Origin: Octopus sinensis
Lineage: Eukaryota
NCBI RefSeq assembly: GCF_006345805.1
Contig: NC_042999.1
Coordinates: forward strand, 139,562,001 to 139,626,000
DNA: 64,000 nucleotides
Direction: 5' to 3'
Positions within the stretch are counted from its first letter, which is position 1. Each line of letters opens with the position of its first letter. The notes beneath the pieces are model-generated. The model saw only the letters and a list, made by a program, of their open reading frames with translations. It was not told the origin of the DNA and searched no databases. Shown here one piece after another: positions 128-55,655 of the stretch. A program made the position numbers and the translations under genes.

Positions 128-508
128 CTTGAGACTTGTACGATAAGTATTTGTCCTCTGTTTCTGAGCTTCCAATCTTGCCTGTCTTTGTTCTGGTGTT
201 TCTGCCCGCCGTCTAGCAAGCTCTCTTTGCCTATGATTTCGTAATCTTAATTGCCTTTCTTCTGCAGTTTCATTTTTCCGTCTTTCCTTTACCCTCATAG
301 CATTCCTATAAGCATTTGTCTTCTGTTTCCGATCTTCTAATCTTGCTTGTCTTTGTTCTGGTGTTTCTGCCCGCCGTCTAGCAATCTGACTTTGCCTATG
401 ATTTCGTAATCTTAACTGCCTTTCTTCTGTAGTTTCATTTTTCCGTCTTTCCTTTGCCTTCATAGCACTCCTGGTGAGACGACCCAGTGCTGATACTTTG
501 GGAGGCAT
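128..508 (-). CDS. Unit A: first coding exon (STPR-like 23-aa repeats) of the repeat-BTB gene; downstream exons lie left of the window
   Basis: ORF MPPKVSALGRLT...ETTEERQLRL...ETPEQRQARL with a 55-aa (165-bp) internal duplication. Acceptor ttttctag just upstream of the ATG; donor AAG|gtagat at 128/127. Paralogous to the exons at 11895, 30306 and 55440. Confidence 0.8.
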
Positions 509-1640
509 AACTTCATAACACTAGAAAACAAGACGTCCTATTATCAGAGAACATTGACACATTTTCTAGATATCTAAAACTAAAATTAGTACAATATCTT
601 TTAAACATGTTACAAGCAACAAATTATACCAATAATCCTTTCCCAATTATGTCTACAGAAAACTAGTATTTATATGAAGATTCCAACTGAAATCTTAGTG
701 TATGGTCTTCACATTGCACAATATTGCTCTTTATAAACGGAGTGTAAGGGATTAGCTCCCCTTGAAAACTATTGTAAATTCGCCATTTTACTAGCGATTA
801 AACTTTGTATATACTAACACGTATTGGGTCCAAAATCTAAACTCCTGACATACATATATATATATAAAGCTGCTTTGCTGGAGTTAACGTGAGAAAAGTA
901 GTAAAATGTGATTTAAAACATTGCCAAGATGGACACATATTTTAGTAATTAGTTCGATTCCAGGTTTGTAGTTTTATATCGAATTTAGAAATATCAGGGT
1001 TTTTTTTATTTAACACGAAGACAATTGGATATTTACCCGATATTTCATTTTAGATCTTTCAACATCACAAGGATACATATGTCAAGGAAATTTAATTGTA
1101 ACACAAATTCTGAATTCGACGAAATCAATGAGTATCTACCTTTTAATCTATTCTGGTGATCGCTGCTCGTTTAGTTTGTAAATAATGAACAGATTGGAAC
1201 GATTGGGTGGTTTACTGATTTTGAAGTCACAGAATAAACTATATATTTTCGTGTTTAATTGAAGCACGTTCATAAATTATTCTTATTGATTCTAATTTTT
1301 ATAAAGTCCCTAAGGCTTTGTATTTTCTTCCCAGAAAATTTGTTATAAGAAACAAATCGATTACAGAGTTGTTCTTTCCTAATATTTTTTAAAACGAATT
1401 TTGCGTAATGAGGAGTTTTTCTAAAATTTTCTATACATTATATTTAATTAGGATATAGTATCACATATATGTAAAAGATAGTTATATGGTATAAATATTT
1501 ACCCATATATTATTCACTAAAGCGCGACAGGCATGATTAACCATTCATCGCAAAAAGAGAAAAACAATATAGGTAAGCAGGAGGAAACAAAAAATTATAA
1601 TATTTAAGATGTGAAAATAATAGAAACAAATTAAACTTAC

Positions 1641-1705
1641 CCGAGAAGGGTCAAAAGTTGGTGCAATGTTAGTTTCCAGAGCCTGCAGGTTCGATAACTC
1701 ACTCA
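1641..1705 (-). promoter_or_regulatory. Putative non-coding first exon/promoter block of unit A
   Basis: Conserved block ending in a strong minus-strand donor (CGG|gtaagt). Recurs upstream of other units at 19246, 21407, 33410 and 47518. The 5' boundary is approximate. Confidence 0.45.
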
Positions 1706-7554: not shown

Positions 7555-10500
7555 TCAAGTAAAACCATCTGTTTTATATAAACCTGTATTTTTGACATTG
7601 GTAACTTGTGTTGATGATAATGGTAATCTGTCCCCTTCTGCTGTAAAAAGTCCTACAGGATAGACATCTTCATTGCTACCACAAATCACATTGTTGTCAA
7701 TTAACTGAGTTGTTGTTGTCCGATTTAGTGATTTAGAAGAGTCTTCTCTTATGAGTCTAGATTGAGAACACAGTTTTTCTTCACTATATGACACAGGAGA
7801 TAAGTCAGAAACTGGAGAACTTTCAAATACATTAGATTTTAATTTGGGTGATGTTCCATATATCTTATTTGTTGTTGCTTTGCTATTTGTGGTATCTGAA
7901 AATGGTAAGCTAAAATCTGTAGTGGATATAGCTATGGAATTCAAAGGAGTGTTTAGCGCCTGAGAACTATCAGAAACTGAACTAGATGTTGAAGCTCTTT
8001 TATTCATTTGACCATATTTGTCATCATCAGGTCCTACAGGCTCGATTTTTACAGTGGGAAGAATATCAGAACCAAATGGAGAGTTGCCACCGTTAGTGTC
8101 CAGAGATGCAGCCTCAAACTCTCGCTTAAAGATTCTGACTGTACCTTCTTTAAGCTGTGCTAATTCATTTTGGGAAATCTCCTGCTTAATATCCTCAGTA
8201 GGAACAGCTGAAATATTAGATGGCATCTGCCGGGAATCATCAAATGCAGTGACTGTCGAAGCAAGTTGCTGACGTGTTCCACTTTGAAGATGAGCATCAC
8301 ACAGATTTTGTAAATCTTTCATGTCTAATTGTTTTGCAATGACTTTTAGCTGTTGTAAAATATTAAGATCAAGATCTAATAGTCCAGTATATATGTATTC
8401 AGCAAAAGCCATTAAAGCTTCTGTACTAACTACTTCAGGAAATTTTACTTCAAAAACCTGGGAAGAGATGTATGTACTAAATACTGAGAACAGTTTTGGA
8501 GACACAGCAGACAAAACAATTTTATGGACCTGAAATATAGTAAATGATAACAGTATGTTTACAGCTTGCCAACAATACATTGATAGACACTTAAGAATCA
8601 TGTTCATAAAATAGAAAAATGTAAGTTTGTTTTTCCAACTTTTACAAAAGCTACTGACTACCAAAAGCCATTGGAAGTTCATTTAAACTTCATTTATCTC
8701 AGAGAATTATTTCATTAATACTTTAACTAAATCAACTCCATTTTCTTTTCTGTAAAATATTCTATTGCATTTTAATGACTGAATCATAAAATTTTCTGAT
8801 AATAATAAAACTCAATTGAATTCTATCTATAACTTCTGATAAAGGCATAAAAAATTTTATGACTAATTAATTATAACAGATTTATCTAAAAATTGCACCA
8901 GTAAGAAAATACAAATCAACTAGACCTACCTTTAAGAAATATAGAGAGGAGTAGAATAAAGAATATCGTGATATTAAGCACATTAGATCTTAAGCATAAT
9001 CTTTTAGACTTACAAGCTAGATTTTTTAGTTATAATGATGATGACATTAGAAACAGTTTATAAATATGAAAAAGTTTACAACTGTATACTTACCATCACA
9101 GTAGATGAGCCATTGCTAATACTGGCATCACATAATTTCCTACTTCTCCACATAGATGCTAGGTTAGACATCACATAACGGTGATGACTAGTAACTAGCA
9201 ATTTTTGTTTCGGTAAATCTGTTATTCTAATTATTGATTTAGATACAGTTGTTTGATTTGGATCTTTCACCAGCTTTGATTTGGATGGAGTTATTTGAAA
9301 TGGTGAAGTCAACACTTGAGCTGGTTTTGTAATATTTTGTGATGCTTGTGCTAAACTTGAATCTTGCTGGACTGGCATTTTAGTAGTTAGATGTACACAT
9401 TTTGAAGTCTTTGGAGATGATAAAGCACTGTCCATTTGCCTAAAATGAAAATTTGCAATTCATTGAGAAGAAATATATATAAGAGAAAAACAATAACTCA
9501 ACAGCATTGTCAAAATACCATTTTAGTTACCACATACCATCTGTCATGTGATTGTTGATTTTTTAACTTTTGATTCTGCAGGCATTGCTCCCCAAGGTGC
9601 TGTGTTTCATTCTTTTTTTCTTGTATCATTTTCATCTGAGTATTGAGGAAGTGAGGCATGATCAAAGAAAGATATAAAGAGATAAAAGAATAAAGATTTC
9701 AGTTCATTGGAAATAATTTGAACTATGACGAATTGATAAGTTATTTAATGCAAATGTCAATGATAATTAAAAAGCTAACAAATAATATTTAATTTCCACA
9801 TTGAAACTTTCACTAAGAAAAAATGGAATCTGTCAGCCACGTAAGTATATGGCAAATCCCCAAAAGCATTCAAAATCAACATGAACAGAGAATCTCTACA
9901 GAATTCCAAAATTGAAAGGGGAATGGAGTTGGATGTTATACTTATCCTATTCTGAAATCTGACATGGTGGTAGATTGTTATAATTTGACTTCAACATCAA
10001 ATATATAGTAACTGCTGCCACAATTCACACAGACATTCTCTGGTAAATATTTTGCAGAAAATTTTTCAACATTGTAATTCCTGATTGAACTTACAATTTA
10101 CAATTGATCTGACAGCAGCTTCATTAAATTTGTATTTTTATCATATACACGGATTCCAATTTATAATGGATAGTGATCCCTCAACACTGTATAGTGTACA
10201 TGATACTGTATTGCAGGTGTGTATTTCTGTGTTGATGATAATATTAGATAATGAAGTACTGAGCATGCTTAGTTACTTGACCTGTCTGCTGATGTTTATC
10301 AATTGTACAGCTCCTAAACCTGATATGGAGATTCAAGGAAGGTTACAAAGTATGACTGAGCCTTAATTCATAATTTTATTGAGTTCATTTCTTATGAAAA
10401 TTGTGGAGAGGCTGCAGTACTAAAAGTTTACATCACAAGAAACCTCATGTTATGAAGCTTCTTACGAGGGGTGTATGAAAAGTTTTGAGCCTAACCTAGA

Positions 10501-12479
10501 AACGGGGCTGCTAGGTAGCTGAAACAATTTTCTGGTAAGTACAGTCTTTTGGGAGTATTCTTGCTCATTTTCATGATTCTGATATTTTAATTTTTTTTGT
10601 TACAGATTTTTGAATAAGCAAGTGTCAAGGTTACAAGGAAAATAGAGAAAACTGAGTATCGTGCTGTCATAAAATACCTTTATTTGAAAGGCATGACTTC
10701 ATCAGAAATCCATGAAGATATGGTGAGAACCTTAACAGACAGTGCTCCTTGATATGCAACAGTCAAACTCTGGGTAAATAAATTCCAGTGTGGCAGGGAG
10801 AGTGTGGAAGATGATCCCACACCAGGGAGGCCTCCAACTGCAACCACCGAGGACAACATTGACCTTGCTCTTGGTATGATAATGCAAGATCATCGAATAT
10901 CATGTCGCCAGATAGCTGAGAGACTGCGCATCTCAAATGAAAGAGCAGACAACATTGTGACAAAAGAACTTGGGTTCTCAAAGGTTTCTGCTAGGTAGAT
11001 CCCTTGCCTTTTGACTCCTGAACAGAAACGCATCCGGTGCACTTTGTTCATGAGTAATCTGGAACTGTTTGAAGCCGATGCAAAGAATTTTCTTGCTCGT
11101 TTTATTACTATGGACGAAAGTTGGGTTCATCACTACCAGCCTGAAACCAAAGAACAATCAAAGCAGTGGAAGCATACATTTCTCCTACCCCAAAGAAGGC
11201 CAGGTCATTCTTTCAGCTGGCAAGGTCATGGCATCAGTTTTTTTGGATTCTCAAGGTGTCTTGCTGATCGATTACCTTGAAAAGGGTCACATCGTGACAG
11301 GGATGTATTATTCTCAGCTACTGTAATGCCTCCAGGAAGCAATCAAAGAAAAAAGGCCAGGAATGCTCACCAGAGGAATCCTTTTTCATCATGACAATGT
11401 TCCAGCCCATACCTCAGTGGTTGCCATAGCAACAATTCGTGATTGTGGATACAATTTGTTCCCCATCTGCCTTATTTGCCAGACTTAGCCCCCTCTGACT
11501 TTCATCTATTCCCAAAAATGAAAAAAGCCCTGGCTGGTCGCCATTTTGCCACTGACAATGACGTCATAGACACTGTAGGAAGTTTCTTAGAGTCTCAAAC
11601 AAAACAGTTCCTCTACGCCGGGATAATGGCACTTCAGCACCACTGGAGAAAGTGTTCAGCCATCAAAGGGGACCATGTTGAAAAATAAATCATCAGAAGT
11701 CTTGTACTATGTTTTGTTTTTTTGAGGCTCAAAACCTTTCAGACACCCCTCATAATACATTCATCCTACATATATCTTTGGTCTCTGAAATTAATTGCAA
11801 TATCAATGATCTCACCAATAAATTCCATAAGCAGATCTTTGTTATATTTCTCCTATAGGTGTGTGATTCTTAAGAATGTATACCTGATATCTACCTTGAG
11901 ACTTGTACGATAAGTATTTGTCCTCTGTTTCTGAGCTTCCAATCTTACCTGTCTTTGTCCTGCTGTTTCAGCCTGCTGGCTAACAAATTGTCTTTGCCTT
12001 TGGTTTTGTAATCTTAATTGTTTTTCTTCTGTGGTTTCCCTTTTCTGTTTTTCTCTTGCCTTCTTAGCATGTTTGGTGAGATGGCCCAGTGATGTTAGTT
12101 TGGGATGCATAACTTCATTTGGTTGATCTTCATTCATGGAATTTCTTCGCTTTTGAACTCTATTTCTCATATTCTGTAGATAAGTTTCCCTCTCCTCAGG
12201 ATTCATGTTATTTCTTCTCTCCTGATCTTTGTCTCTTTTATTCTGAAGATAAAGTTCTCTCTCATGTTGGTCCATATTATTTCTTCTTTCACGATCTCTG
12301 TTTCTTCTATTCTGAAGATAAAGTTCCCTCTCCTCTTGGTTCATATTACTCCTTATTTTTTGCATACGTTCTCGAATACGGTCACGGACTGCTTGCCTCT
12401 CTTCTGTTGATAACCGCTGCCGTCGTCTTCTCTGTCTTTCTCTTGCTGCCGCTCTTTGTTGACTTATTCTCTCTTCCAT
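7555..12479 (-). CDS. Unit B: repeat(STPR-like)-BTB/POZ protein, 4 coding exons (12479-11895, 9635-9538, 9439-9094, 8529-7555), 667 aa
   Basis: All junctions GT/AG with compatible phases (0,2,0); total 2004 nt with no internal stop. BTB signature LCDASI...VHKIVLSAVSPKLF...FAEYIYTG...AKQLDMKDLQNLC spans exons 3 and 4. Confidence 0.8.
10465..11752 (+). mobile_element. Mariner (Tc1/mariner, DD34D) transposon, full-length but pseudogenised, in an intron of unit B
   Basis: TIRs cgaggggtgtatgaaaagttttgagcct / aggctcaaaacctttcagacacccctca with TA TSD. The empty site 'ccttcttaatacattt' is seen in units C, D and E. Transposase motifs ITMDESWVHHY, HHDN, PYLPDLAPSDFHLF, broken by stops and frameshifts. 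Confidence 0.93.
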
Positions 12480-15400
12480 TTTTAAGAATAGTTGAATCTG
12501 TAAGCGATATAAGAAAAAAGCTCCCTTAGCCTGACAAACGCTGATGGTAAAAGCGTATCAATATATAAAATACTAAAGCGAATTATATGTAATCAGTTTT
12601 AACTATGCTACAATGAATTTCTTCAGGAATATAATGCAACATTAAAATAGCTTTAGCTACACTACATGCTTCCGTAAGAAATCTACTTGTGGAAGTCTAC
12701 GGTCACATCCCACTATTTTTAATTTTCATACGCTGTATGCAAATTGTGTCCAGAAGATAAAATTTGGGAATGTTATGCAAGCTTTTGTTTATTATTCAAT
12801 ATTCTCAATAATTATGAATTATTTCAGATGTATTGTATTTATGTATCCAGTGAAAAACAAACAAAAAGAACCTCAAAGCTCCCACCTCCCGGGGATGTTG
12901 AAGTGAGCAATGCACAATGTGAAGTCGGTGAACTGTCAAATTGAAAAAATAAAATTATATTGTATGAAAATGTATGATTATGTGTAGTATAACACAAAAA
13001 TTATAAAATTATTTGATAGTAAAATATGGTCACTATTTAAAGATGATTACAGTTTTTAATGTTTTCCGTGAAGTTTTCAAAGGTTGAGGTAGTTTATATA
13101 AATCTGTAGAATACGTCAGGTATATTTCATACGATAGATCGAAAGAAAGAGAGTGAAAGAGAAACAGAGAGATATGGGAAATACATGTTACAGAACTTTC
13201 CAATATTATAGATAGATAATACATTGTCCTTTTCTTTTCACAAAATCAAGGGAAACAACTCGAATTAAATCCCGACTTATTTCCTTTAGTGTGACAAACG
13301 CAGACGGTATAAGCATATTAATAATATAGAAGATGGTCTTCACTTGCACAATATTTGTCTTTTTAAAGGCAGTGTAAGGGATTAGCACTCACTTGCATTA
13401 GATTCAAAATCTGAACTCCTAAATTCGATAAATATATATATATAGCAGGAGTACCCGGCGTTGCTAGTGGTATAAATGCTTCATCATTCTAAAAACACTT
13501 ATATTCTAGTCTAACAACTAGCGCTACCAAAACGTTTTTGAAAAACATACAGAATTCCATGCCAAAATGTACCAAAATTCACAAAAATAGAGAAAAATAC
13601 CAGTTTTTCAACATCTTTGTTCTGGCGAATGGCGTGTTGTTCTTTGTTTTCTGCAGACTGCACAGCAGCATTTGCTGTAGCATACCTGGCAGCAAAAGTT
13701 TTTTCTCCACCAGAGTTCTGAACCCTAGCAATGAACTCATTTGCATACAGCCAATCAGAGCTCACCTTGTCAAGTTAACAAGCACACTCTACCAAGTAAA
13801 TTTAAGACAAACAATGGTGTTGTAAATTGACTGATCACCAAGTTATGCCTGATTTTAGAAGGAGACAAGTATTAGATAAATTTGCATCTATACCTATTAT
13901 CAGATTTTGTTAGGGGGCCCCATATGGTAAAGATGTGGGTAGAGGGTGATATGCTAGCAACCCTCTCCCCTTACTGTTTTAGAAAGTAAACAACACAAAT
14001 AACTATGCAGAGACAGCCATGGTTGAAACAAGAACAAACATTATTAAAAGAGAAAAGAAGCATCATCATTCCTTACCCAAGTGACCTTATCTTATTGCCC
14101 ATCACTTGTTATGCGCACATAAATTATTTTGATAGTTGAGCTCTGATTGGCTGTATGCAAATGAGTTCATAACTAGGGTCTGGAATTTTCGTGGGATAGA
14201 TATTTCGCTACCAGGCATGGCGAATGGCAAGATGTTCTTCATTCTCCGCAATTCTTACAGCATTCCAGGCACAGCAAATGGCACACTGTTCTTCATTCTT
14301 TGCAGTTCATGCAGCAGGGGTTGCTATAACTGTAGCATTCCTGGCATGGTGAATGGCATGCTGTTTTTTGTTCTCTGCAACTCACACAGCAGCAGTTGCT
14401 ATAGCATCTTGTATGACAAATAATATGCTGTGACTGAATCAGGTTAGCGTATACTGTAGCTATTAATGAAGCATTTCTGATCTGGCGACTGCTATACTGC
14501 TCCTTGCTTTCCATGGCTCTTGCGGTGACTGTGCAACCAGCATTTTGTGAATGTCTTCATGCAGTCTAGTGTGAGGATTCATTTGCTCTCCTTCTCTTCG
14601 ATGTCTCAACTGCGGCAGTTTTGCAACCAATATGGGCTCTTTTCTTAGGTGGCATTATCTCAGAGTTTAGAAGCTTCAATTACAAAATGCAGATGTAGCA
14701 AAAGTAAATTTAAATACACAGAGGGCAAAAAATTCAGAGGGAGAAAACGGAGAAAATCAGTTGGAAACTGCAGAAGTGTTTGGAGAAAAACCCATGTAAA
14801 ACAGTTTTTCTAGATGGAAGTTAGTGTGTGTGTGAGTGAGTGAGAGAGAGACAGGGTGAAAGAAACAGACATAGACTAAAAGAGAGGAACTATTACAGAG
14901 GGTGAGAGAAAATATCAGTAAGCAACAGAAATAGAGAATGAGATGAGACAGAGAAGAGAGAAACAAAGAGAGAGAGAAAAGGAAGAGAATTAGTTGAAAA
15001 TTGCAGAGGTTTTTAGAGAAAAACCCATGTCATCATCATCATCATTTAGTGTCCACTTTCCATGCTAGCATGGGTTAACTGGGGTCTGTGAAGCCAGAAG
15101 GCTGCATCGGCCCAGTCTGATCTAGCAGTGTTTCTACGGCTGGATGCCTTTCCTAACGCCAACCACTCCGTGAGTGTAGTGGGTGCTTTTTAGGTGCCAC
15201 CCGCACAGGTGCCAGATGGAGCTGGCAAACGGCCACGGACAGATGGTGGTTTTTACGTGCCACCGGCACGGAGGCCAGTCGGGGTGGCGCTGGCAATGGC
15301 CACGATTGGATGGTTCGCTTACTTGTCACCGGCACTGGTATCACAGCTGCAATTTCCATTGATGTTGATCGACTTCGATTTTGGTTCTGCTTTCTGATAT

Positions 15401-16071
15401 CTGATTTGATTTTGATTTTGATTTTCACTTGCCTCAACGGGTCTTCACAAGTGGAGTTTTGTGTCCCAAGAAGGAAAGGTATGTATAAGTCGACTGGCTA
15501 CATACCAGGTAGAGGCCACAGGTTATGGACTCACTAGTCTTGCCGGGTCTTCTCATGCACAGCATACTTCCATAGGTCTCGGTCTCTAGTCATTTCCTTG
15601 ATGAGACCTAAAGTTCGAAGGTCGTGCTTCACCACCTTGTCCCAGGTTTTCCCGGGCCTACCTCTTCCACAGGTTCCCTCAACCGCTAGGGTGTGGCACT
15701 TTTGCACACAACTATCTTCAGCCATTCTCGTCACATGACCATACCAGCGCAAACGTCTCTCTTGCACACCACAACTGATGCTTCCTAGGTCCAACTTTTC
15801 TCTCAAGGTACTTACACTCTGTCGAGTATGAACACTGACATTACACATCCATCGGAGCATACTGGCTTCATTTCTTGCGAGCTTACGCATATCCTCAGCA
15901 GTCACAGCCCATGTTTCACTGCCATGTAGCATGGCTGTTTGTACACATGCATCATACAGTCTGCCTTTTACTCTGAGCGAGAGGCCTTTTGTCACCAGCA
16001 GGGGTAAGAGCTCACTGAACTTTGCCCAGGCTATTCTTACTCTAGCAGTTACACTTTCAGCACACCCACCC

Positions 16072-19245: not shown

Positions 19246-19310
19246 CCGAGAAGGGACAACAATAGATGAAATATTCGTTTCCAGAGCCTCCAGGTTCGAT
19301 AACTCTCATA
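19246..19310 (-). promoter_or_regulatory. Putative non-coding first exon of unit B (proximal copy)
   Basis: Same conserved block and CGG|gtaagt donor as at 1641. Confidence 0.45.
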
Positions 19311-21406: not shown

Positions 21407-21470
21407 CCGAGAAGGGCCTAACAGTAGGTGCAATGTTCGTTTCCAGAGTCTCCAGGTTCGATAACTCTTA
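21407..21470 (-). promoter_or_regulatory. Second (distal) copy of the first-exon/promoter block upstream of unit B
   Basis: Segment ~20220-22075 repeats the intron-1, exon-1 and upstream sequence without an intervening coding region. Confidence 0.45.
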
Positions 21471-27104: not shown

Positions 27105-30100
27105 TCAAGTAAAACCATCTGTTTTATATAAACCTGTATTTTTGACATTGGTAACTTGTGTTGATGATAATGGTAATCTGTCCCCTTCTGCTGTAAAAAG
27201 TCCTACAGGATAGACATCTTCATTGCTACCACAAATCACATTGTTGTCAATTAACTGAGTTGTTGTTGTCCGATTTAGTGATTTAGAAGAGTCTTCTCTT
27301 ATGAGTCTAGATTGAGAACACAGTTTTTCTTCACTATATGACACAGGAGATAAGTCAGAAACTGGAGAACTTTCAAATACATTAGATTTTAATTTGGGTG
27401 ATGTTCCATATATCTTATTTGTTGTTGCTTTGCTATTTGTGGTATCTGAAAATGGTAAGCTAAAATCTGTAGTCGATACAGCTATAGAATTCAAAGGAGT
27501 GTTTAGTGCCCGAGAACTATCTGAAACTGAACTAGATGTTGAAGCTCTTTTATTCATTTGACCATATTCGTCATCATCAGGTCCTACAGGCTCGATTTTT
27601 ACAGTGGGAAGAATAACAGAACCAACTGGAGAGTTGCTATCCTTAGTGTCCGGAGATGCAGCCTCAATCTTTTGCTCAAAGAGTCTAACTGTATCTTCTT
27701 TAAGTTCTGCTAATTCATTTTGAGAAACCTCCTGCTGTTTAATATCCTCAGTAGGAACAGCTGAAATATTAGATGGCATCTGCCTGGTATCATCAAATGC
27801 AGTGACTGTTGAAGCAATTTGCTGACGTGCTCCACGCAGAAGATGAACATCACACATATTTTGTAAATCTTTCATGTCTAATTGTTTTGCAATGACTTTT
27901 AGCTGTTGTAAAATATTAAGATCAAGATCTAATAGTCCAGTATACATGTATTCAACAAAAGCCATTAAAGTTTCTGTGCTTACTTCAGGAAATTTCACTT
28001 CAAAAAACTGAGAAGAGATGTATGTACTAATTACTGAGAACAGTTTTGGAGACACAGCAGACAAGACTATTTTATGGACCTGAAATATAGTAAATGATAA
28101 CAGTATGTTTATAGCATACCAACAATAGAATGACAGACACTTAAGAAACATGTTTATAAAGTAGAAAAATGTAGGCTTATGTTTTTCCAATTTCTACAAA
28201 ACCTATTGACTACCAAAAGTGTCAAGCCACTGGAAGTTAATTTAAACTTCACTTATCTCAAAGAGTTATTTCATTAATACTTTAATTAAATCAACTCCAT
28301 TTTCTTTTTCTGTAAAATATTCTATTCTATATCAGTAACCAAATGTTTGAGAAAAAGTTATTTTCAATGATGGAATCGTAAAACTAAAGGCTACACCTAT
28401 GTTTAAGAAATATAGGGGGGAGTAGAATAAAGAATATCTTGATATTAAGCACATTAGAAATTAAGCATAATCTTTTAGACTTACAAGCAAAATTTTTTAC
28501 CTATCATGATGATGTCATTAGAAACAGTTTCTAACTGTGAAAAAGTTTACAACTCTATACTTACCATCACAGTAGATGAGCCATTGCTAATACTAGCATC
28601 ACATAATTTTCTACTTCTCCACATAGATGCTAGGTTAGACATCACATAACGTTGATGACTAGTAACTAGCAATTTTCGTTTCAGTAAATCTTTTTTCCTA
28701 ATTATTGATTTAGATACAGTTGTTTGATTCGGATCTTTCACCAGCTTTGATTTGGATGGAGTTATTTGAAATGGTGAAGTCAACACCTGACCTGGCTTTG
28801 TAATATTTTGCGATGCTTGTGCTAAACTTGAATCTTGCTGGACTGGCATTTTAGTTGGATGTACACATTTTGAAATCTTTGGAGTTGATAAAGCACTGTT
28901 CATTTGCCTAAAATGAAAATTTGCAATTAATTCAGAAGAAATGTATAAGAGAAAAATAGTAACTCAATAGCATTGTCAAAATACCATTTTAGTCATCACA
29001 TACCATCTGTCATGTGATTGCTGATTTCTTAACATTTGATTCTTGTGTTGCTTCTTCAAGTGTTGCTCCCCAAGGTGCTGTATTTCTTTCTTTTTTTCCT
29101 GTGTCATTTTCATCTGAGTGTTGAGGAAGTGAGGCACGATCACAGAAAGAAATAAAAAGATGAAAGACTAATGAATTCATTTAAATGGAAATAATTGAGA
29201 CTGTGATGAATGGATAAGTTATTTTAATGAAAATGTCAATGATAACTGAAAATTCTTGTTTGTAAGGCTGACAAATAATGCTTAATTACCATATTGAAAC
29301 TTCCACTAAGACAAAATGGAATCTGTCAGTCACATATGTCTATAGCAAATCTCAAAAGCATTCAAAATCAATCTGAACAAAGAATCTCTACTGAATTCTA
29401 AAACTGAAATGAGAATGGAGCTGGATGTTATACTTATCCTATTCTAAAATCTGACATGATGGTAGCATGTTGTAATTTGACTTCAACATCAAATATATAG
29501 TAACTGCTGCTACAATTCACACAGACTTTCTCTGCTAGATTTTTTGCAGAAAATTTTTCAACATTGTAATTCCTGATTGAATTTACAATTGATTCAGTTG
29601 TATTTTTATCATATACATTAATTCCAAAATTATACTCAATTTATATGGATAGTGATTCCTCAACACTTTATAGTGTACATGATACTGTATTACAGGTGCA
29701 TATTTTTGATAATACCAGATAACGAAGTACTGAGCACACTAAGTTGGCTTGTCCACTGATGTTTATCAGTTGCACAGCTCCTAACCCTGACATGGAGATT
29801 CATGGAAGCATACAAAGTATGACTGAGCCTTAATTCATGATTTTGTTGAGCTCATTTATCATCATCATCATCGTTTAACGTCCGTTTTCCATGCTAGCAT
29901 GGGTTGGACGGTTCGAACGGGGTCTGAGAAGCCAGGAGGCTGCACCAGGCTCCAGTCTGATCTGGCAGTGTTTCTACAGGTGGATGCCCTTCCTAATGCC
30001 AACCACTCCGTGAGTGTAGTGGGCACTTTTTAAGTGCCACCAGCACAGGTGCAAGGTGAGGCTGGCAATGGCCACGATCGGTTGGTGCCAATTCTTAATG

Positions 30101-30521
30101 AAAATTGTGGAGAGGCTGTAATACTAAAAGTTGACATCACAAGAAACTTCATATCATAAACCTTCTTAATACATTTATCCTACATATATCCTTGGACTCT
30201 GAAATGAATTGCAATATCAATGACCTTGCAAATAAATTCCATAAGCAGATCTTTGTTATATTTCTATTGGTGTGTGATGCTTAAGAATGTATACCTGATA
30301 TCTACCTTGAGAGTTGTACGATAAGTTCTTGCCCTCTGTTTCTGAACTTCTAATCTTGCCTGCCTTTGTTCCACTGTTTCTGCCTGCCGAAGAGCAAATT
30401 GTCTTTGTCTCTTATCTTGCAATCTTAATTGTTTTTCTTCTGTGCTTTCCCTTTTCCGTCTTTCTCTTGCCCTCTGAGCAGATTTGGTGAGACGGCCCAG
30501 TGATGATCGTTTGGTACGCAT
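27105..30521 (-). CDS. Unit C: repeat(STPR-like)-BTB/POZ protein, 4 coding exons (30521-30306, 29113-29004, 28907-28565, 28079-27105), 547 aa
   Basis: GT/AG junctions with phases 0,2,0; 1644 nt open; same BTB signature as unit B. Confidence 0.82.
29858..30090 (-). mobile_element. RTE 3'-end-derived SINE/truncated LINE in an intron of unit C
   Basis: (CAT)n + cgtttaacgtccgttttccatgctagcatgggttgg, matching the 3' end of the RTE at 15030. A ~45-bp remnant lies at the same site in unit E (~55178-55220). Confidence 0.8.
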
Positions 30522-30609
30522 AACTTCATTACACTAGAAAAAAAAATGTTGCATTAAATGAGAACACTGACACATTTTCTAGACATCCAAAAAAAATAGT
30601 ACAATATCT

Positions 30610-33409: not shown

Positions 33410-33472
33410 CCGAGAGGGTCCGACAGTAGATAAAATGTTCGTTTCCAGATCCTCCAGGTTCGATAACTCTCT
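33410..33472 (-). promoter_or_regulatory. Putative non-coding first exon of unit C
   Basis: Conserved block with donor CGG|gtaggt. Confidence 0.4.
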
Positions 33473-33797
33473 TAGTTTATATTTTTCTTCAGCACAGAAT
33501 GTTTTTTTTATTTTATTGTGGTGTTATTATATTAGTGCACAGTTAGCAGTGAACCTCTTCACAGCGTGCGGTTTGCTAATGCCACGCTGTCTGTTTGACT
33601 GACATTACCCAAATTTCCCAACTTTAATTCCAAATAACATTAGATTCTTTAATTGGTTGATCGTAATCAAAATTCAGAGTTGTATTGAAACACCAAAATT
33701 GAAAGCAATCGGAGCAAAATTAAGGGGGCTCATTTTGCGAATGAGAAAGACTAGATCCTTTACCGTTTTACAAACTTAAACTACAAAATTGGACAAA

Positions 33798-38021: not shown

Positions 38022-40100
38022 TCAAGTAAGGCCATCTGTTTTATATAAACCTGTATTTTTGACATTGGTAACTTGTGTTGATGATAATGGTAATGTGTCC
38101 CCTTCTGCTGTAAAAAGTCCTACAGGATAGACACCTTCATTGCTACCACAAATCACATTGTTGTCAATTAACTGAGTTGTTGTTGTTCGATTTATTGGCT
38201 TAGAAGAGTCTTCTTTTATGAGTCTAGATTGAGAACACAGTTTTTCTTCACTATATGACACAGGAGATAAGTCAGAAACTGAAGAACTTTCAAATACATT
38301 AGATTTTAATTTGGGTGATGTTCCATATATCTTATTTGCTGTTGCTTTGCTATTTGTGGTATCTGAAAATGGTAAGCTAAAATCTGTAGTGGATACAGCT
38401 ATAGAATTCAAAGGAGTGTTTAGTGCCCGAGAACTATCTGAAACTGAACTAGATGTTGAAGCTCTTTTATTCATTTGACCATATTCGTCATCATCAGGTC
38501 CTACAGGCTCGATTTTTACAGTGGGAAGAATAACAGAACCAACTGGAAAGTTGCCACCGTTAGTGTCCAGAGATGCAGCCTCAATCTTTTGCTCAAAGAG
38601 TCTAACTGTATCTTTTTTAAGTTCTGCTAATTCATTTTGAGAAACCTCCTGCTTAATATCCTTAGTAGGAACAGCTGAAACATTAGATGGCATCTGCTTG
38701 GTATCATCAAACGCAGTGACTGTTGAAGCAATTTGCTGACGTGCTCCACTCAGAAGATGAGCATCACACATATTTTGTAAGTCTTTCATGTCTAATTGTT
38801 TTGCAATGACTTTTAGCTGTTGTAAAATATTAAGATCAAGATCTAATAGTCCAGTATATATGTATTCAGCAAAAGCCATTAAAGTTTCTGTACTAACTAC
38901 TTCAGGAAATTTCACTTCATAAAACTGAGAAGAGATGTCTGTACTAATTACTGAGAACAGTTTTGGAGACACAGCAGACAAGACTATTTTATGGACCTGA
39001 AATATAGTAAATGATAACAGTATGTTTATAGCTTGCCAACAATACATTAATAGACACGTAAGAGTCATGTTCATAAAATAGAAAAATATAAGTTTGTTTT
39101 TCCAACTTTTACAAAAGCAATTGACTACCAAGTCACTGGAAGTCACTGGAAGTTGATTTTAAACTTCATTCATTTCAAAGAGTTATTTCATTAATACTTT
39201 AATTAAATCAACTCCATTTTCTTTTTCTGTAAAATATTCTATTGTATTTTAATGACTGAATCATAAAATTTTCTGATAATAATAAAACTCAATTGAATTC
39301 TATCTATAACTTCTGATAAGGGCATAAAAGATTTTATGACTAATTTATTATAACAGATTTATCTAAGAATTGCACCAGCAAGAAAATACAAATCAACTAG
39401 ACCTACCTTTAAGAAATATAGAGGGGAGTAGAATAAAGAATATTGTGATATTAAGCACATTAGAAATTAAGCATAATTGTTTAGACTTACAAGCAAAATT
39501 CTTTGCTTATCATGATGATGACATTAGAAATAGTCTATAGATGTGAAAAAGTTTACGACTGTATACTTACCATCACAGTAGATGAGCCATTGCTAATACT
39601 AGCATCACATAATTTCCTATTTCTCCACATAGATGCTAGGTTAGACATGACACAATGTTCGTGACTAGTAACTAGCAATTTTTGTTTCGGTAAATCTGTT
39701 TTTCTAATTATTGATTTAGATACAGTTGTTTGATTTGGATATTTCACCAGCTTTGATTTGGATGGAGTTATTTGAAATGGTGAAGTCAACACCTGAGCTG
39801 GTTTTGTAATATTTTGCGATGCTTGTGCTAAACTTGAATCTTGCTGGACTGGCATTTTAGTTGGATGTACACATTTTGAAATCTTTGGAGTTGATAAAGC
39901 ACTGTTCATTTGCCTAAAATGAAAATTTGTAATTAATTCAGAATATATAAAAGAAAAATAGTAACTCAATAGCATTGTCAAAATACCATTTTAGTCATCA
40001 CATACCATCTGTCATGTGATTGTTGATTTCTTAACATTCGATTCTCGTGTTGCTCCCCAAGGTGCTGTATTTCTTTCTTTTTTTCCTGTGTCATTTTCAT
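38022..40100 (-). CDS. Unit D: BTB/POZ paralog lacking the repeat exon (exons 40100-40006, 39913-39571, 38996-38022); possibly an N-truncated ~470-aa protein or a pseudogene
   Basis: The three remaining exons are open and in phase (1413 nt), and the linker exon begins ATG AAA ATG. Unit homology breaks at ~40950 and resumes at ~44082, skipping the repeat exon. Confidence 0.65.
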
Positions 40101-40949: not shown

Positions 40950-43900
40950 CTATATCTATAAAACAGTCCTTGGATGAAAATTGTATGCACATTTTGCTTT
41001 GACGGTTAATGGCGGCCAAACCGAGGCTTGGATCAAGTTGAAACTTGGCAAGGATACTAAATGCATGGTGAGGATGAGACCTGTGATGGTTAAAATTCGC
41101 AAGCTATAAAGATGTGGTTGCTATGGCAAAAAGAGTGATTTTTTTATCGATTCAAGGGGGCTCAGAGCCCCTCTAGGTTTGTGCGATTGGCTTTAAATGC
41201 CCAGTGGCATGCACTGCAGGCTGTTGTGCTTAATAAACATACATTTTGTCACAAAATTCCGGCTACTAGGAAACAATTTTTCATTGTGAAAAAATGATTG
41301 CTTTTTGCCCTCATTTTCTTTTTAATTTCTTACTACTTACATTGTTGGCATTTTCAGAAAAAAAAATTACATCTACATGTAGCCCTTCAGAAGGGCTATC
41401 ATGCACATTTTTCTCCTTTCTTGCAATATCCAATGGCAATTTGAAGGCTGAATGTGCTGTTTTACAGCCATGCAACAAAGTCACTGCAATTCCGCTTGAT
41501 GCAGCTGCCAAAGCGATTCTCCTGTCTTTTCGCAGTTTTGCAAGTAGAAGGTTGATGACAAATGTTTTGCCTGTGCCACCCGGAGCATCCAAAAAGAAAA
41601 GTGTACCTTCATTTGAAATGACACTGGAAAAATTCTGTTGTACGCGAATTGCTGTTCAATCAAATGTTTGGATTCATTTCGAGCCAACATTTTGGTTAAT
41701 TCTTTAAGGTTGTAGTACAATTCCGTGATGTATTCTGAATCTAAAATGCCATCTCTGTAGACAGGGTTTGGAATACCGAAATGAGATACATCGTCGAATC
41801 CAGCAGCTCAGAGACGCCTATCGATATAAAGGAGCGCCTTGTTGTAGATTTCATTGTTGTATTCTCTTGCGTGTAGTCTTCACAAGATGTCCTCCGACAT
41901 GCTGTTTTTGTGCGTTTCCCACAGCTGTAGGGGTTCGCTTACATTGCAGAATCGCAGCATACTGCAGAACAATCACCGCATCTCCGTCATGCTCCATTGC
42001 ATCGTGAAGCTGTGTGTATTCAGCAGCTCAGAGCTCCTTTGGTGAGTGCAGATGTAGAACAGACGTTTGGATTCAATTTTGGCATACATGTCAACAAAGA
42101 ACTGATTAGTGACATCTTTGAACCGTAGCAGCTTGTTGAAATCGTTATCCCGAACCATCATTCGGTAGGCATAAAATGCCTTGCAAGAAACTTTTTTGCA
42201 CAGGAACTCAAGTTGTTGGGTGTATCTGTTGTATGTGGAAGTGGTAGCCGTCGTCACCACGCAGAAACAAGAGTGAATACTGAAGACAGTTGTAGGAGCG
42301 GTGGGTTTTGGAGACAAATGACAATCGGTTACTTCGGTGTTGGAGAACAATGTCGCGGGTGCTGTGTTCTTTGTCAACCATGATGGCTGCAATTTCGCTG
42401 GTCGTCGAAGCGTTGAACCTTCGAGGATGTTCGCCGGTGGTGTTTTGTCAGCTCGGATGACCAGTTTCATTTCAGGTCTGGAGTCCAAAAATTCAGTAGC
42501 AACTTTCAGATCGTGGACATATGGATGGGTTTCATGAAGCATTGTTTGAAGTTCTTCAATGACGCTGCCATTAATGGACGCATTTCTGCTGCATCTAAGG
42601 GATAGTTCTTCTTCATTTCTGCCCATGAAGACTTGCATAAATCTCGGCTCCTCTCCTTGCTGTGGTCGAAGTTTCCAATCAAGTGGTAACACTGGCCTTG
42701 AATTTTTTAATTGTAAAGTTTTTCTCTGGGCCTGGTTTGATCAGTTCGAGAAGTGCCAGCGACATCTGTATTGTCGATGTTTGTTCTAGCATTTTGTCCA
42801 TCCCTAATACCGAAAGACGTCATCGCGAAGCAGGAATTGTACTTCTACAAATTCTTGCGAAATAATTTCCCGTGGTCTGAGTTACCGGTGAGAAGATCAC
42901 AGAGTAATTGAGGAGGCTCAGCCAGTGGCTCAAGATTAACTTTGGTCCCGGAACAGCAAAGGCCCGGAGTCTCACATTTCCACTTTTTGGCTCCACAGAA
43001 GTTGCACGCTTTGTCCATCTTTCCGATAGACACATCAGCTCGACTGGCGTAGTCATAGGCAGGGTCGTAGTTGAAGGCAACCGAGGAAACGAACTGTTGA
43101 CCAGGAGAATTATAATTCATTTTAATAAAAGCATCAATTTAAAAAAAAAATAAAGTAGTAACAAATGAAAATTTAGCACAAAAAATGTGGAGGCTTCTAA
43201 ATAAATGTTCAAATGTAAAAGATACAAATATAGACGGCGAATTAAAATAAAGCACAGTTCAGATATAATAAACGTGCATTAAAAATTGAAATTGTTGTAG
43301 GTTAAGTAATACAGGAACCGGAAAAAGATTGTTCAAATAATCGACCCATGAAATTTGTAGTGTGTTGATTGGGTAAATCGTTTTAGAAAATATTTAATGA
43401 AATATTTATTTAAAAAATTTTAATTCAAAAAACGTACATGATAAGCACAAAGCAAATGCTTGATGGCGGGTTCTCTTTTTATTTGCTCCATCGGCGAGTT
43501 TTGGGCGGTTGAGGATTCCAAGGAGTGAGCCTTCATGGAGAAAAGGTGGAAAAAAGCAATGTGCTTAAAAAATTATTAAAGATAGGGGTGTATCTAGTCA
43601 GTTTTTCTCAGTAAATTTCAAAAGAACGAAGAGCTCATTAAAATTTAATGTATAAAATATGAATACATTTTGTTTTTGTAATTGGCAGTTAAAGCATAGA
43701 AAAAATGTGCTTTAAGTATAGCTTAGAAAAATGGAGAAAAAATAGTGAATGATGGATTATTTTAATGATTTTAATGTTGTCAGTAAAGTAAAATGTAAAA
43801 AAATAAATTTTAAAAAAAGGAATCTGATCACCAGAACGTGAGCGAATAGCCCATATCAGAAGTATTTTTCTTTTGGGTAAAAAGGCTATTTATTAATCAA

Positions 43901-44080
43901 AAAATTACCCGAGCATGTGCCTTCCTCTTTCGCAATTTCCTCATTCTAGCTCGGTGGTTTGATAAGTTGGAGCGCTTACGCATAGGCATATTGAAAAGCA
44001 AATCTGAAAAATAAAATAAATATTTTGAAACCAAAAGATGATTTGGTTTACAATGAGAAAAGGAATAAAATAGTTGAGAA
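40950..44080 (-). mobile_element. Internally deleted Helitron (Rep-helicase fragments) occupying the position of unit D's repeat exon
   Basis: Fragments AFNYDP...CNFCGAKKWKCETPGLCCSG (43090-42845), Rep region YAYRMMVRDNDFN...QFFVDMYAKIES (42692-41973), and PIF1 Walker A LDAPGGTGKTF...AASSGIA...TAHSAFKLP (41592-41420). Confidence 0.88.
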
Positions 44081-47517: not shown

Positions 47518-47582
47518 CCGAGAAGGTCCAACAGTAGGTGAAATGAGCGTTTCTAGATCCTCCAGGTTCGATAACTCTCTTA
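47518..47582 (-). promoter_or_regulatory. Putative non-coding first exon of unit D
   Basis: Conserved block with donor CGG|gtaagt. Confidence 0.45.
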
Positions 47583-49480: not shown

Positions 49481-49499
49481 TGACATTGACTAAGCATTC

Positions 49500-52032: not shown

Positions 52033-55000
52033 TCAAGTAAAACCATCTGTTTTATATAAACCTGTATTTTTGACATTGGTAACTTGTGTTGATGATAATG
52101 GTAATCTGTCCCCTTCTGCTGTAAAAAGTCCTACAGGATAGACACTTTCACTGCTAACACAAGTCACATTGTTGTCAATTGACTGAGTTGCTACAGTTCG
52201 AGTTAGCGGATTAGAAGAGTCTTCTCTTAAGAGTCTAGATTGAGAACACAGTTTTTCTTCACTATATGACACAGGAGATAAGTCAGAAACTGGAGAACTT
52301 TCAAATACATTAGATTTTAATTTGGGTGATGTTCCATATATCTTATTTATTGTTGCTTTGCTATTTGTGGCATCTGAAAATGGTAAGCTAAAATCTGTAG
52401 TGGACACAGCTATAGAATTCAAGGTAGTGTTCAGAGTCTGAGAACTATCTGAAACTGAACTAGATGTTGAAGCTCTTTTATTCATTTGACCATATTCGTC
52501 GTCATCAGGCCCTACAGGCTCGATTTTTACAGTGGGAAGAATAACAGAACCAAATGGAGAGTTGCTATCCTTAGTGTCCGGAGATGCAGCCTCAATCTTT
52601 TGCTCAAAGAATCTAACTGTATCTTCTTTAAGTTCTGCTAATTCATTTTGAGAAACCTCCCGCTTAATATCCTCAGTAGGAACAGCTGAAACATCAGATG
52701 GCATCTGCCTGCTATCATCAAACGCAGTGACTGTTGAAGCAATTTGCTGACGTGCTCCACTCAGAAGATGAGCATCACACATATTTTGTAAGTCTTTCAT
52801 GTCTAATTGTTTTGCAATGACTTTTAGCTGTTGTAAAATATTAAGATCAAGATCTAATAGTCCAGTATATATGTATTCAACAAAAGCCATTAAAGTTTCT
52901 GTGCTTACTTCAGGAAATTTCACTTCATAAAACTGAGAAGAGATGTATGTACTAATTACTGAGAACAGTTTTGGAGATACAGCAGACAAAACTATTTTAT
53001 GGACCTGAAATAAAGTAAATGATAACAGTATGTTTATAGCTTGCCAACAATAAAATGATACACACTTAAGAAACATGATTATAAAGTGGAAAAATTTACT
53101 ACAAAACCTATTGACTACCAAAAGTGTCAAGCCACTGGAAGTTAATTTAAACTTCACTTATCTCAAAGAGTTATTTCATTAATGCTTTAATTAAATCAAC
53201 TCCATTTACTTTTTCTGTAAAATATTCTATTCCGTATTAGTAAGCAAATGTTTCAGAAAAAGTTATTGTCAATGATGGAATCGTAAAACTAAAGGCTACA
53301 CCTACTTTTGAGAAATACAGAGAGACTAGCTATTTTGACCCTTAATTCGCTCAGGTTTTGGTGGTGGTGTTGTTTTGTGTGTGTTGTCTCCTTTTCCCTC
53401 TCTTCTTTTGTTCGTCTTCTTTGCCAGGTTCTTTTTATTGTCCTCTTCTTTTTCTTATTTAAAAATTTTTTTCTTTGTCTTTATCTTCTTGAAAACTAAA
53501 TTTTCCCCATATTCTTCACAATGGCAACAAAATAGTTGCCGCGAGCGACTTGCAACCCTCCTCACACCATTGCCCGCTCCATTTCCCCCCCCCCCAGTGT
53601 AAATTTTGGTGCCAATCCGACCCCATCTACCGCCACGTAAATCATTCCCATCCCAAAATGAGACAAATAACCAAGAAATCAAACAACTTTTTTGCATTTC
53701 AGCTTTTTAGATATTGAAGTAGAAGAAAGAATATCTTGATATTAAGCACATTAGACATTATGCATAAATTTTTGGACTTACAAGCAAAAGTCTTTGCTTA
53801 TCATGATGATGACATTAGAAACAGTCTATAGATGTGAAAAAGTTTACAACTGTATACTTACCATCACAGTAGATGAGCCATTGCTAATACTAGCATCACA
53901 TAATTTTCTACTTCTCCACATAGATGCTAGGTTAGACATCACATAACGGTGATGACTAGTAACTAGCAATTTTTGTTTCGGTAAATCTGTTTTTCTAATT
54001 ATTGATTTAGATACAGTTGTTTGATTTGGATCTTTCACCAGCTTTGATTTGGATGGAGTTATTTGAAATGGTGAAGTCAACACCTGAGCTGGCTTTGTAA
54101 TATTTTGCGATGCTTGTGCTAAACTTGAATCTTGCTGGACTGGCATTTTAGTTGGATGTACACATTTTGAAGTCTTTGGAGATGATAAAGCACTGTCCAT
54201 TTGCCTAAAATGAAAATTTGCAATTAATTCAGAAGAAATGTATAAGAGAAAAATAGCAACTCAACAGCATTGTCAAAATACCATTTTAGTCATCACATAC
54301 CATCTGTCATGTGATTGTTGATTTCTTAACATTTGATTCTGGTGTTGCTTCTTCAAGTGTTGCTCCTCAAGGTGCTGTATTTTGTTCTTTTTTTCCTGTA
54401 TCATTTTTATCTGAGTGTTGAGGAAGTGAGGCATGATCAAAGAAAGAAATAAAAAGATAAAAGACTAATGAATTCATTTAAATGGAAATAATTGAGACTG
54501 TGATGAATGGATAAGTTATTTTAATGAAAATGTCAATGATAACTGAAAATTCTTGTTTATAAGGCTGACAAATAATGCTTAATTCCCATATTGAAACTTC
54601 CACTAAGAAAAAATGAAATCTGTTAGCCACATAAGTATATGGTAAATCCACAAAAGCATTCAAAATCAATCAGAACAGAGAATCTCTACAGAATTCCAAA
54701 ACTGAAATGAGAATGGAGCTGCATGTTATACTTATTCTATTCTGAAATCTGACATGGTGGTAGATTGTTGTAATTTGACTTCAACATCAAATATATAGTA
54801 ACTGCTGCCACAATTCACACAAGACTTTCTCTGGTAGATTTTCTGCAGAAAATTTTTCAACATTATAATTCCTGATTGAGTTTACAATTGATTTAACAGT
54901 AGCTTCATTAAATTTGTATTTTTATCATATACATTGATTCCAAAGTTATATTCAGTTTATAATGGATAGTGATTCCTCAACACTGTATAGTGTACATGAT

Positions 55001-55655
55001 ACTGTATTGCAGGTGTGTATTTCTTTGGTGCTGATAATACCAGATAATGAAGTACTGAGCACACTAAGTTACTTGACCTGCCTGCTGATGTTTATCGATT
55101 GCACAGCTCCTAAACCTGATATGGAGATTCAATGAAGCATACAAAGTATGACTGAGCCTTAATTCATGATTTTGTTCAGGTGCAAGGCGAGGCTGGCAAT
55201 GGCCATGATCGGTCGGTGCCAATTCTTAATGAAAATTGTGGAGAGGCTGTAATACTAAAAGTTGACATCACAAGAAACTTCATATCATAAACCTTCTTAA
55301 TACATTTATCCTACATATATCCTTGGTCGCTGAAATTAATTGCAATATTAATGACCTCGCATATAAATTCCATAAGCAGATCTTTGTTATATTTCTCCTA
55401 TTGGTGTGTGATGCTTAAGAATGTATGCCTGATATCTACCTTGAGAGTTGCACGATAAGCTCTTGTCCTCTGTTTCTTAGCTTCTAATCTTGCCTGCCTT
55501 TGTTCCACTGTTTCTGTCTGCCGACGAACCAATTGTCTTTGCCTATGATTTTGTAATCTTAATTGCCTTTCTTCTGTGGTTTCCCTTTGACGTTTTTCTC
55601 TTGCCCTCCTAGCTTCTTTGGTGAGACTGCTCAGTGATGATCGTTTGGGGCGCAT
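52033..55655 (-). CDS. Unit E: repeat(STPR-like)-BTB/POZ protein, 4 coding exons (55655-55440, 54410-54301, 54204-53862, 53004-52033), 546 aa
   Basis: GT/AG junctions with phases 0,2,0; 1641 nt open; BTB signature conserved. Confidence 0.8.

Follow-up and report, generated by a model that had tools for sequence, protein, structure and literature searches.

The window analyzed here, a 64,000-nucleotide stretch of the 2.7 Gb Octopus sinensis genome (C3:139,562,001-139,626,000, contig NC_042999.1), carries a tandem array of genes in which a basic repeat domain precedes a BTB domain. We consider it probable that these genes encode head-first BTB regulators that were born from a larger neighboring locus, here called the hub, and that their repeat exon was likely captured from a Helitron transposon. 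An earlier reading of this DNA from the sequence only had proposed five paralogous units, and self-comparison of the window resolved five homologous units, all on the minus strand, which we designate Z, A, C, D and E.

The exons of the units, all on the minus strand, are laid out as follows. The repeat exon of unit Z (128..520, ATG at 508) contains four STPR-type repeats arranged as 2+2 together with a 165-bp duplication; its linker and BTB exons sit just left of the window, and its spliced product is P0047. Unit A, whose product is P0046, begins with exon 1 (11895..12479), where a second 69-bp (23 amino acid) basic array lies in frame with two STPR-type repeats, and continues with a 98-bp linker exon (exon 2, 9538..9635), exon 3 with further linker and the N-terminal strand and helix of the BTB domain (9094..9439), and exon 4 with the main BTB part and a serine/threonine-rich tail (7555..8529, stop at 7555). 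Unit C comprises a repeat exon with two STPR-type repeats (30306..30533, acceptor at 30533, ATG at 30521), a 110-bp linker exon (29004..29113), exon 3 (28565..28907) and the BTB and tail exon 4 (27105..28079). Unit E, with product P0053, has the same layout: a repeat exon with two STPR-type repeats (55440..55667, ATG at 55655), a 110-bp linker exon (54301..54410), exon 3 (53862..54204) and exon 4 with BTB and tail (52033..53004). Unit D retains a 95-bp linker exon with an ATG at its start (40006..40100), exon 3 (39571..39913) and exon 4 with BTB and tail (38022..38996), and at the expected place of its repeat exon there is a broken Helitron (40960..42740) with Helitron_like_N and PIF1 pieces in different frames. 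Two short basic exons further upstream in unit D (43438..43989, as 43989-43909 and 43530-43438) are joined to its linker in O. vulgaris gene models.

Scripted splicing of these exons gave proteins without internal stops of 667 (A), 547 (C), 546 (E) and, with neighboring DNA added, 624 amino acids (Z), while unit D is open over 470 amino acids from its linker exon and lacks a repeat exon. The spliced A, E and Z sequences are letter-for-letter the annotated O. sinensis proteins P0046, P0053 and P0047, and unit C has an O. vulgaris counterpart, P0055. The exon junctions are thus present in the sequence itself and the same joins occur in annotated gene models. The exon sizes were as first described (linker exon 98/110/95/110 bp, exon 3 346/343 bp, exon 4 975/975/975/972 bp; each exon has AG/GT ends), and so was the inverted order, repeat head first and BTB downstream, in the spliced and annotated genes. 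Other parts of the sequence-only reading needed revision. Its three intact units of 546-667 amino acids had the right lengths, but four units (Z, A, C and E) are intact once the neighboring DNA is added; of its five repeat-BTB units four stand, unit D having a Helitron fragment in place of the repeat exon; and the 23-residue repeat that it quoted is real but belongs to unit Z, whose BTB lies outside the window. Three further candidates were rejected: a stop in the unit E linker exon was read in the wrong frame, a conserved plus-strand gene behind each stop codon gave no Pfam match, has stops in all frames and was taken as 3′ flank, and zinc-finger exons after the tail are at odds with annotated proteins of three species that stop at the same codon.

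Upstream of each unit lies a short element with a conserved splice donor, for which a genome search returned 13 matches, all within C3:139.563-139.647 Mb. We infer that this element is each unit's own first exon and promoter. The putative non-coding first exons on the minus strand are at 1641..1705 for unit Z (an array-only element, donor after 1641, start approximate), 19246..19310 and, as a second copy, 21407..21470 upstream of unit A (donors after 19246 and 21407), 33410..33475 for unit C (donor after 33410) and 47518..47582 for unit D (donor after 47518); the likely first exon of unit E lies 11 kb upstream of it, beyond the window (C3:139,629,0xx).

Twelve copies of the BTB exon follow one another at C3:139.539-139.742 Mb, and five more lie at 141.88-141.98 Mb. 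The first gene of the 12-copy row, 115 kb past the window, is the hub (LOC115209932/LOC106877732). Its isoforms, whose numbering reaches X36 in O. bimaculoides, have a common BTB region and differ only at the N-terminus in a comparison that covered 15 of the 32 members of the main cluster, plus others. In the BTB tree the window genes form one clade (100/100) that is nested with the hub (95/86) within a coleoid head-first clade (100/99), and the split of the BTB over two exons is common to the window genes and the hub. These relationships suggest that the window units are likely young offshoots of the constant BTB part of an older hub locus. Other genes of the 12-copy row bear 23-residue repeat, FLYWCH or ZSWIM-like heads. 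A second array, at C3:141.87-141.99 Mb on the plus strand, holds five BTB genes. Strong STPR exons, each with three to four repeats, are present in three of these genes (the two that were scanned reached Pfam scores of 51 and 67 bits), and a CENP-B head occurs in a related protein. The initial suggestion of a stand-alone new class of regulators was therefore not borne out, given that the window genes are likely young offshoots of the hub and that the STPR and BTB combination also occurs in the second array and in Argonauta. The repressor role proposed with it is putative, and the hub and the likely Helitron origin of the repeat exon had escaped the sequence-only reading. Proteins P0091/P0093 and P0075/P0076, from other octopus loci, represent further small hubs, where FLYWCH, DUF3504 or THAP heads alternate on a related BTB, and one isoform among these retains a DDE_3 transposase domain.

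The hub heads are separate minus-strand exons at 139.744-139.926 Mb (~180 kb), upstream of the constant exons. Those that were mapped end in in-frame GT donors and join the constant exons either directly or via three small shared exons, and the annotated isoforms join them singly to one constant BTB. Across the hub span (C3:139,742,730-139,926,118, minus strand) more than 20 DNA-binding-type exons lie upstream of one constant BTB region. In a scan of open reading frames (ORFs) of the hub, DNA-binding-type Pfam domains at E<=0.01 were found in 23 of 104 minus-strand and 0 of 90 plus-strand ORFs. The scanned set excluded ORFs of <50 amino acids and those with a high content of I/Y/C/V/H/T/F/L (111 of 220 on the minus strand, 92 of 184 on the plus strand), as well as ORFs that spanned a stretch border (five on the minus strand, two on the plus strand). 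The 23 heads comprised 11 THAP, three CENP-B/Tc5, two Brinker, two DUF3504, two other helix-turn-helix (HTH), one FLYWCH, one psq and one zinc finger. Since all detected heads are upstream and on the sense strand, cis-splicing would suffice to join them, and trans-splicing in the style of mod(mdg4) would not be needed. The starts of the cDNA models differ between hub isoforms in the part of the supplement of PMC10027918 that was covered, which suggests separate first exons.

Four of the hub heads encode half a THAP each and stop immediately ahead of the last zinc ligand, which, as read from the C2CH motif, is supplied by a shared downstream exon. Half-THAP exons were seen at L021:4716-8685, at L023:655-858 and in L019 near C3:139,766,779, and an unsplit THAP of the same type at C3:139,747,198. 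The THAP head of the O. bimaculoides proteins P0003 and P0028 is used there by both the hub and a window-type gene. In the O. sinensis genome the same head is a dispersed repeat with 23 matches on 10 contigs and is absent from the O. sinensis hub locus, which argues that head capture has been recent and repeated.

The heads of the window genes are of the STPR type. In the part of PMC4856987 covered here, STPR domains are described as three to seven tandem repeats of 23 residues, usually four, with Glu1, Thr/Ser2 and Arg9 as hallmarks. All three hallmark residues are present in 10 of the 10 repeats in Z, A, C and E, with a 23-residue spacing within each pair; A, C and E have two repeats each, and Z has four, as 2+2 with a nine-residue gap. 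The best match for the repeats among solved structures was FMBP-1 (E 0.0057). Against the cut-off of 27 bits for Pfam STPR (PF21107), Z passed at 31, C and E reached 17.4 and 20.7, and A, which has a distinct 23-residue basic array ahead of its STPR-type repeats, gave no match. The STPR identity first proposed thus holds for the hallmarks; the repeat number in A, C and E departs from it, and in the profile scan only Z exceeds the cut-off. By their resemblance to STPR repeats, which contact the major groove of DNA at 4 bp per repeat, those of the window are predicted to bind DNA.

We next consider the origin of the repeat exon. Across the genome 63 matches to Pfam STPR were found, about two dozen of which lie in a tandem cluster at C29:2.63-3.05 Mb. 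Of the 12 best loci fetched, 10 proved to be the start of a Helitron-type Rep/helicase ORF, recognized by motifs and belonging to one young family; of the other two, one was the second STPR+BTB array and one was ambiguous. Among 28 protein matches to the first 400 residues of Z, 27 were octopod and one was a lizard protein with STPR and Helitron_like_N. On a profile built from seven Helitron N-termini the window exons reached 35-80 bits, more than any of the 200 shuffles of each, and the 24-residue leader before the first repeat in the window exons is alike to the 25-residue leader of the Helitron. Because the exon resembles the N-terminus of a Helitron Rep/helicase in this way, its capture from such an N-terminus is likely. 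Helitrons are reported to carry STPRs in the covered part of PMC11417382. The clearest capture intermediate by sequence appears to be a paralogue at C3:139,681,381-139,680,992, 55 kb past the window, in which a Helitron-like head (74 bits) forms one open frame with the first BTB exon. A decayed Helitron-type N-terminus with a leader, two repeats and three stops also lies within the window (14446..14655, minus strand), 2 kb upstream of exon 1 of unit A. A copy of the STPR-like exon of the hub itself (C3:139,759,340) was rejected as the source, since its leader differs, it scores 14 bits on the Helitron profile in comparison to 35-80 bits, and a genome search with the Z exon does not retrieve it. 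That search found the four window copies only and no close donor Helitron; the capture would accordingly be an old event, old enough to be common with O. bimaculoides.

A narrower form of the same interpretation is that the genes defend the host against Helitrons, the repeat binding the sites of the transposase and the BTB bringing silencing. KRAB-transposase fusions, for which a repressor role is reported, have been proposed to act in this way. The Helitron-like head, the abundance of a young Helitron family in the genome, and the repeated capture of 23-residue repeat heads in the array and in the second array fit such a role, as does the divergence among A, C and E, which is highest in the repeat exon (13-17%, in comparison to 2-7% in exons 3-4). 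However, Helitron binding by the repeat is a prediction and no close donor of the window exon is left in the genome; the higher synonymous divergence (dS) of the repeat exon among A, C and E (0.14-0.22, mostly 0.04-0.14 elsewhere) has another explanation in gene conversion of the BTB part, and its ratio of nonsynonymous to synonymous divergence (dN/dS) is not clearly above 1. We therefore regard a dedicated role in Helitron defense as unlikely, although it is the best placed of the alternatives.

The BTB of the window proteins exceeds the Pfam cut-off and is of the long, dimerizing form, with a model strand at 187-189, a helix at 195-206 and a predicted local distance difference test score (pLDDT) mostly of 70-96; the model is disordered past one helix after the BTB. 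Its best fold matches were NS1-BP, KEAP1, PLZF and BCL6. No zinc finger (C2H2 included), BACK or Kelch domain was matched by Pfam in P0001-P0006, the THAP of P0003 being the exception. Pfam, model and fold matches together upheld the domain order first described, i.e., a linker, a central long-form (ZBTB-like) BTB and a tail without zinc finger, BACK or Kelch. Dimerization of the window proteins through the BTB is predicted from the model. A complex model of the E-BTB with the hub-BTB scored 0.85, with 0.02 for the best of three controls, contacts that agree in >=96% between runs and a partner pLDDT of >=87; the mark that it passes was reached, for microbial pairs, by 51 of 78 solved and two of 108 mismatched ones and, for eukaryotic pairs, by 71 of 105 solved and two of 126 unrelated ones, and because BTB dimers are among the solved structures this pass may show likeness only.

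The window genes are kept open. Among A, C, D and E all 15 pairwise exon gaps (about five distinct events) are multiples of three; over all ten pairs this was so for 28 of 46 exon gaps in comparison to 32 of 148 non-coding gaps, a count that is less clear for the Z pairs, where the exon-1 slice was mis-registered and the aligner split a long insertion. A simulated neutral copy stayed free of stops with a probability of 0.12, 0.04 and 0.03 at 3, 4 and 5% substitution, respectively. The dN/dS of the BTB was 0.13-0.49 in nine of 10 pairs and 0.90 in one, and that of the repeat exon, linker and tail was 0.46-1.12, 0.35-1.93 and 0.58-1.21, respectively, from small counts in non-independent pairs. 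The purifying selection proposed in the sequence-only reading is therefore clear for the BTB and not clear for the repeat exon, linker and tail, which are loose. Four units, and likewise O. bimaculoides (90% identical), keep an intact frame in the repeat exon, intact counterparts of the genes are annotated in three Octopus species, and identity to the O. bimaculoides counterparts is 89% for A, 86% for E and 98% for the hub.

That clear constraint is found on the BTB only, that unit D is open without a repeat exon, and that the heterodimer model passes, with the caveat of likeness given above, would also be expected if the two-repeat proteins were poor DNA binders and acted mainly as dominant-negative partners that sequester hub isoforms through the BTB. 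We consider this improbable, since Glu1, Thr/Ser2 and Arg9 are kept in every repeat, the head frame is intact in the four units and in O. bimaculoides, and the repeats have been doubled in Z and extended in A. Still more improbable is that the units are loosely constrained recent duplicates in decay, with the repeat exon a functionless accidental exonization: whole-gene dN/dS reaches 0.97, unit D has lost its head, A and E are less similar to their O. bimaculoides counterparts than is the hub, and an orphan 3′ piece of 250 bp at 56.5 kb marks a lost unit, but five frames are open where a single neutral copy would stay open with a probability of 0.03-0.12, gaps among A, C, D and E are triplet-only, BTB dN/dS is mostly low, and three Octopus species have intact annotated counterparts. 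That the proteins are instead Cullin-3 ubiquitin-ligase adaptors whose head selects substrates rather than DNA is scarcely credible, for although KLHL-type BTBs (NS1-BP, KLHL3, KEAP1) are among the best matches in sequence and fold and transposon HTH domains captured by F-box genes have been proposed to act on protein substrates (PMC12062965, in the part covered), ZBTB-type BTBs match about equally, the related heads are of DNA-binding types, and Pfam matched neither the BACK/3-box nor the Kelch that follow the BTB in KLHL Cul3 adaptors, the model being disordered there.

The favored interpretation, of head-first BTB regulators born from the hub, can be set out as a series of predicted steps. 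Each unit would possess its own first exon and promoter, and the intron behind it would be a landing place for transposons. A DNA-binding exon that landed there with a phase-0 donor would be spliced onto the linker and BTB exons, a join that is seen in the sequence and in the annotated models. As the BTB would pair two chains, two short repeat arrays would act together. The window BTB could also pair with hub isoforms bearing THAP, CENP-B, FLYWCH or other heads, and such mixed pairing would yield chromatin regulators of mixed specificity. The array likely evolves by birth-and-death turnover, in which the BTB is conserved and homogenized while heads are gained, doubled (Z), extended (A) or lost (D).

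Several observations weigh against this interpretation. The splice junctions in the window, as far as they go beyond the sequence itself, rest on automated gene models. The two canonical repeats of A, C and E are below the range of three to seven in the covered part of PMC4856987, their exons score below the Pfam cut-off, the residues at the base-touching positions 13, 14, 17 and 21 of FMBP-1 differ in the window repeats, and the Atlas look-alike score for STPR, 0.90, is weak, with recognition below the mark. To these are added the missing close donor Helitron and dN/dS values of 0.35-1.9 outside the BTB and 0.54-0.97 for whole genes, though on small and non-independent counts. Finally, Z, C and E have a conserved out-of-frame ATG that precedes the start codon by 8 bases (window 516, 30529 and 55663, minus strand, approximate); it opens a short overlapping frame and could damp translation.

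The variable-front design was also found in other molluscs. Argonauta has the hub together with an STPR+BTB protein of the second-array type. Logan proteins that cluster with cuttlefish models bear THAP or FLYWCH heads on the same BTB part, and in another cluster the heads are THAP or ZSWIM-like; given that their contigs are 2.4-4.6 kb long, we read these as spliced transcripts. The abalone gene LOC124116851 has at least 14 isoforms, with THAP, FLYWCH, C2H2 or MADF heads on one BTB and the same split THAP. The abalone and octopus hub BTBs are not sisters in either tree, and a joint clade was not rejected (p-AU 0.187). As that THAP type also occurs on DDE_Tnp_4 transposases, the THAP half-exon could have been captured twice. 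A search with the abalone THAP head gave BTB fusions in Haliotis only (four of 18 matches) and no bivalve or annelid hubs. By sequence, the design thus appears common to cuttlefish-type and abalone genes, through one origin or convergence. A group of related BTB-first proteins (P0108-P0168) with C-terminal BEN, C2H2, zf-Tnp_2, CENP-B or DDE_1 domains, several with the same N-terminal BTB, is possibly a BTB-first cassette gene in another lineage.

As a broader and tentative proposal, which we hold with clearly less confidence than the account of the window genes, molluscs may have a modular transcription-factor system in which one locus collects transposon DNA-binding exons of many families as alternative first exons for a single BTB, builds THAP domains from variable and shared halves, and buds off fixed single-head genes such as the window array. 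If this were true, pairing through the BTB would give hundreds of two-headed regulators, as a counterpart to KRAB zinc fingers in transposon control or to mod(mdg4) in chromatin organization, and the system would predate the squid-octopus split and perhaps be common to gastropods. One locus would constantly trap the DNA-binding domains of transposons, a process ongoing between Octopus species, and the window genes would be the first case found of a Helitron N-terminal repeat turned into a host regulator family. Expansions of zinc-finger and protocadherin genes are known in cephalopods; the hub, on the same proviso, would be a compact source of cephalopod regulatory diversity and a likely mix-and-match source of gene regulators.

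In clustered protocadherins and UGT1A, too, many variable first exons are joined to a common constant set. Those first exons are paralogues of a single domain, whereas the hub heads are unrelated captured domains and its products are predicted nuclear regulators. The closest logic is that of Drosophila mod(mdg4) and lola, where a constant BTB is combined with one of many DNA-binding exons; in the covered part of PMC11426971, mod(mdg4) has at least 30 isoforms, mostly with FLYWCH domains joined to a constant BTB, a number similar to that of the hub. The hub reverses this order, with the variable head first and the constant BTB downstream, and draws its heads from at least eight unrelated domain families rather than one; it is thus a constant-BTB cassette in reverse, which the single window units are not. 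The TTK motif FxLRWN of the N-terminal BTB extension, which according to the same part of PMC11426971 was not found in molluscs, is absent from the aligned window proteins and the hub sequence, in contrast to the TTK group to which mod(mdg4) and lola belong. Window-type proteins are named 'uncharacterized', 'Ken-like' or 'ZBTB11' in RefSeq/GenBank, and the latter two names are unfit because the BTB is internal, not N-terminal as in the ZBTB/Ken layout, and C2H2 zinc fingers are lacking. The octopus system therefore belongs neither to the TTK group nor to ZBTB/Ken. This mirror-image likeness to mod(mdg4) would allow a test of whether a BTB and head cassette is a repeated evolutionary solution.

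With STPR proteins such as silkworm FMBP-1 and human ZNF821, the window genes have in common the basic 23-residue repeats with Glu1, Thr/Ser2 and Arg9. They differ in having two repeats in A, C and E, other base-facing residues and a Helitron-type leader, and in the fusion of the repeats ahead of a BTB, a pairing not met in the parts of the STPR literature covered. Host-transposase fusions (bioRxiv 10.1101/2020.05.07.082677, in part) share with the octopus genes the repeated splicing of a transposon DNA-binding exon onto a host effector. Here the host is an invertebrate, the effector is a BTB that lies downstream, donors likely include Helitrons, and many captures are kept together at one locus, where they serve as alternative exons before spreading by tandem duplication. 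The captured exon is traceable to a transposon protein with moderate strength, there being no close donor copy; three of the units are spliced in annotated models, and the BTB is constrained, the head weakly.

Mukherjee and Moroz (2023; PMC10027918) list the same RefSeq proteins as octopus THAP-BTB, CENPB-BTB and Psq-BTB. In Table 1 of their supplement, of which 10 of 14 matching rows plus further rows were covered, the hub LOC number appears in 11 places and the O. bimaculoides relative of a window gene is entered as THAP BTB. The covered main text counts the hub proteins as separate transcription factors, calls the BTB a transposon part, and does not contain the words 'isoform', 'STPR' or 'Helitron'. 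If the hub is one gene, part of the published count of 'independent' transposon-derived octopus factors would be isoforms of it. In the literature covered, largely outside subscription journals and with PMC10027918 as the one source of supplements, no paper was found that treats the locus as a single multi-isoform gene or describes an STPR-BTB fusion. The window array is best viewed as the young end, with a likely Helitron-derived tip, of a head-first BTB cassette system that is apparently undescribed.

Other features of the window lie outside the gene units. At 56479-56734 there is an orphan 250-bp copy of the 3′ flank of the units without a gene, probably the remnant of a lost unit. A broken Helitron-like ORF occupies 58225-59700, with 51-bp and 69-bp (23 amino acid) repeat arrays just upstream, whose repeat type differs from that of the captured exon. 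Frameshifted LINE-type pieces, by their look reverse transcriptase and endonuclease, were seen at 15534-17039 and 47925-48920.

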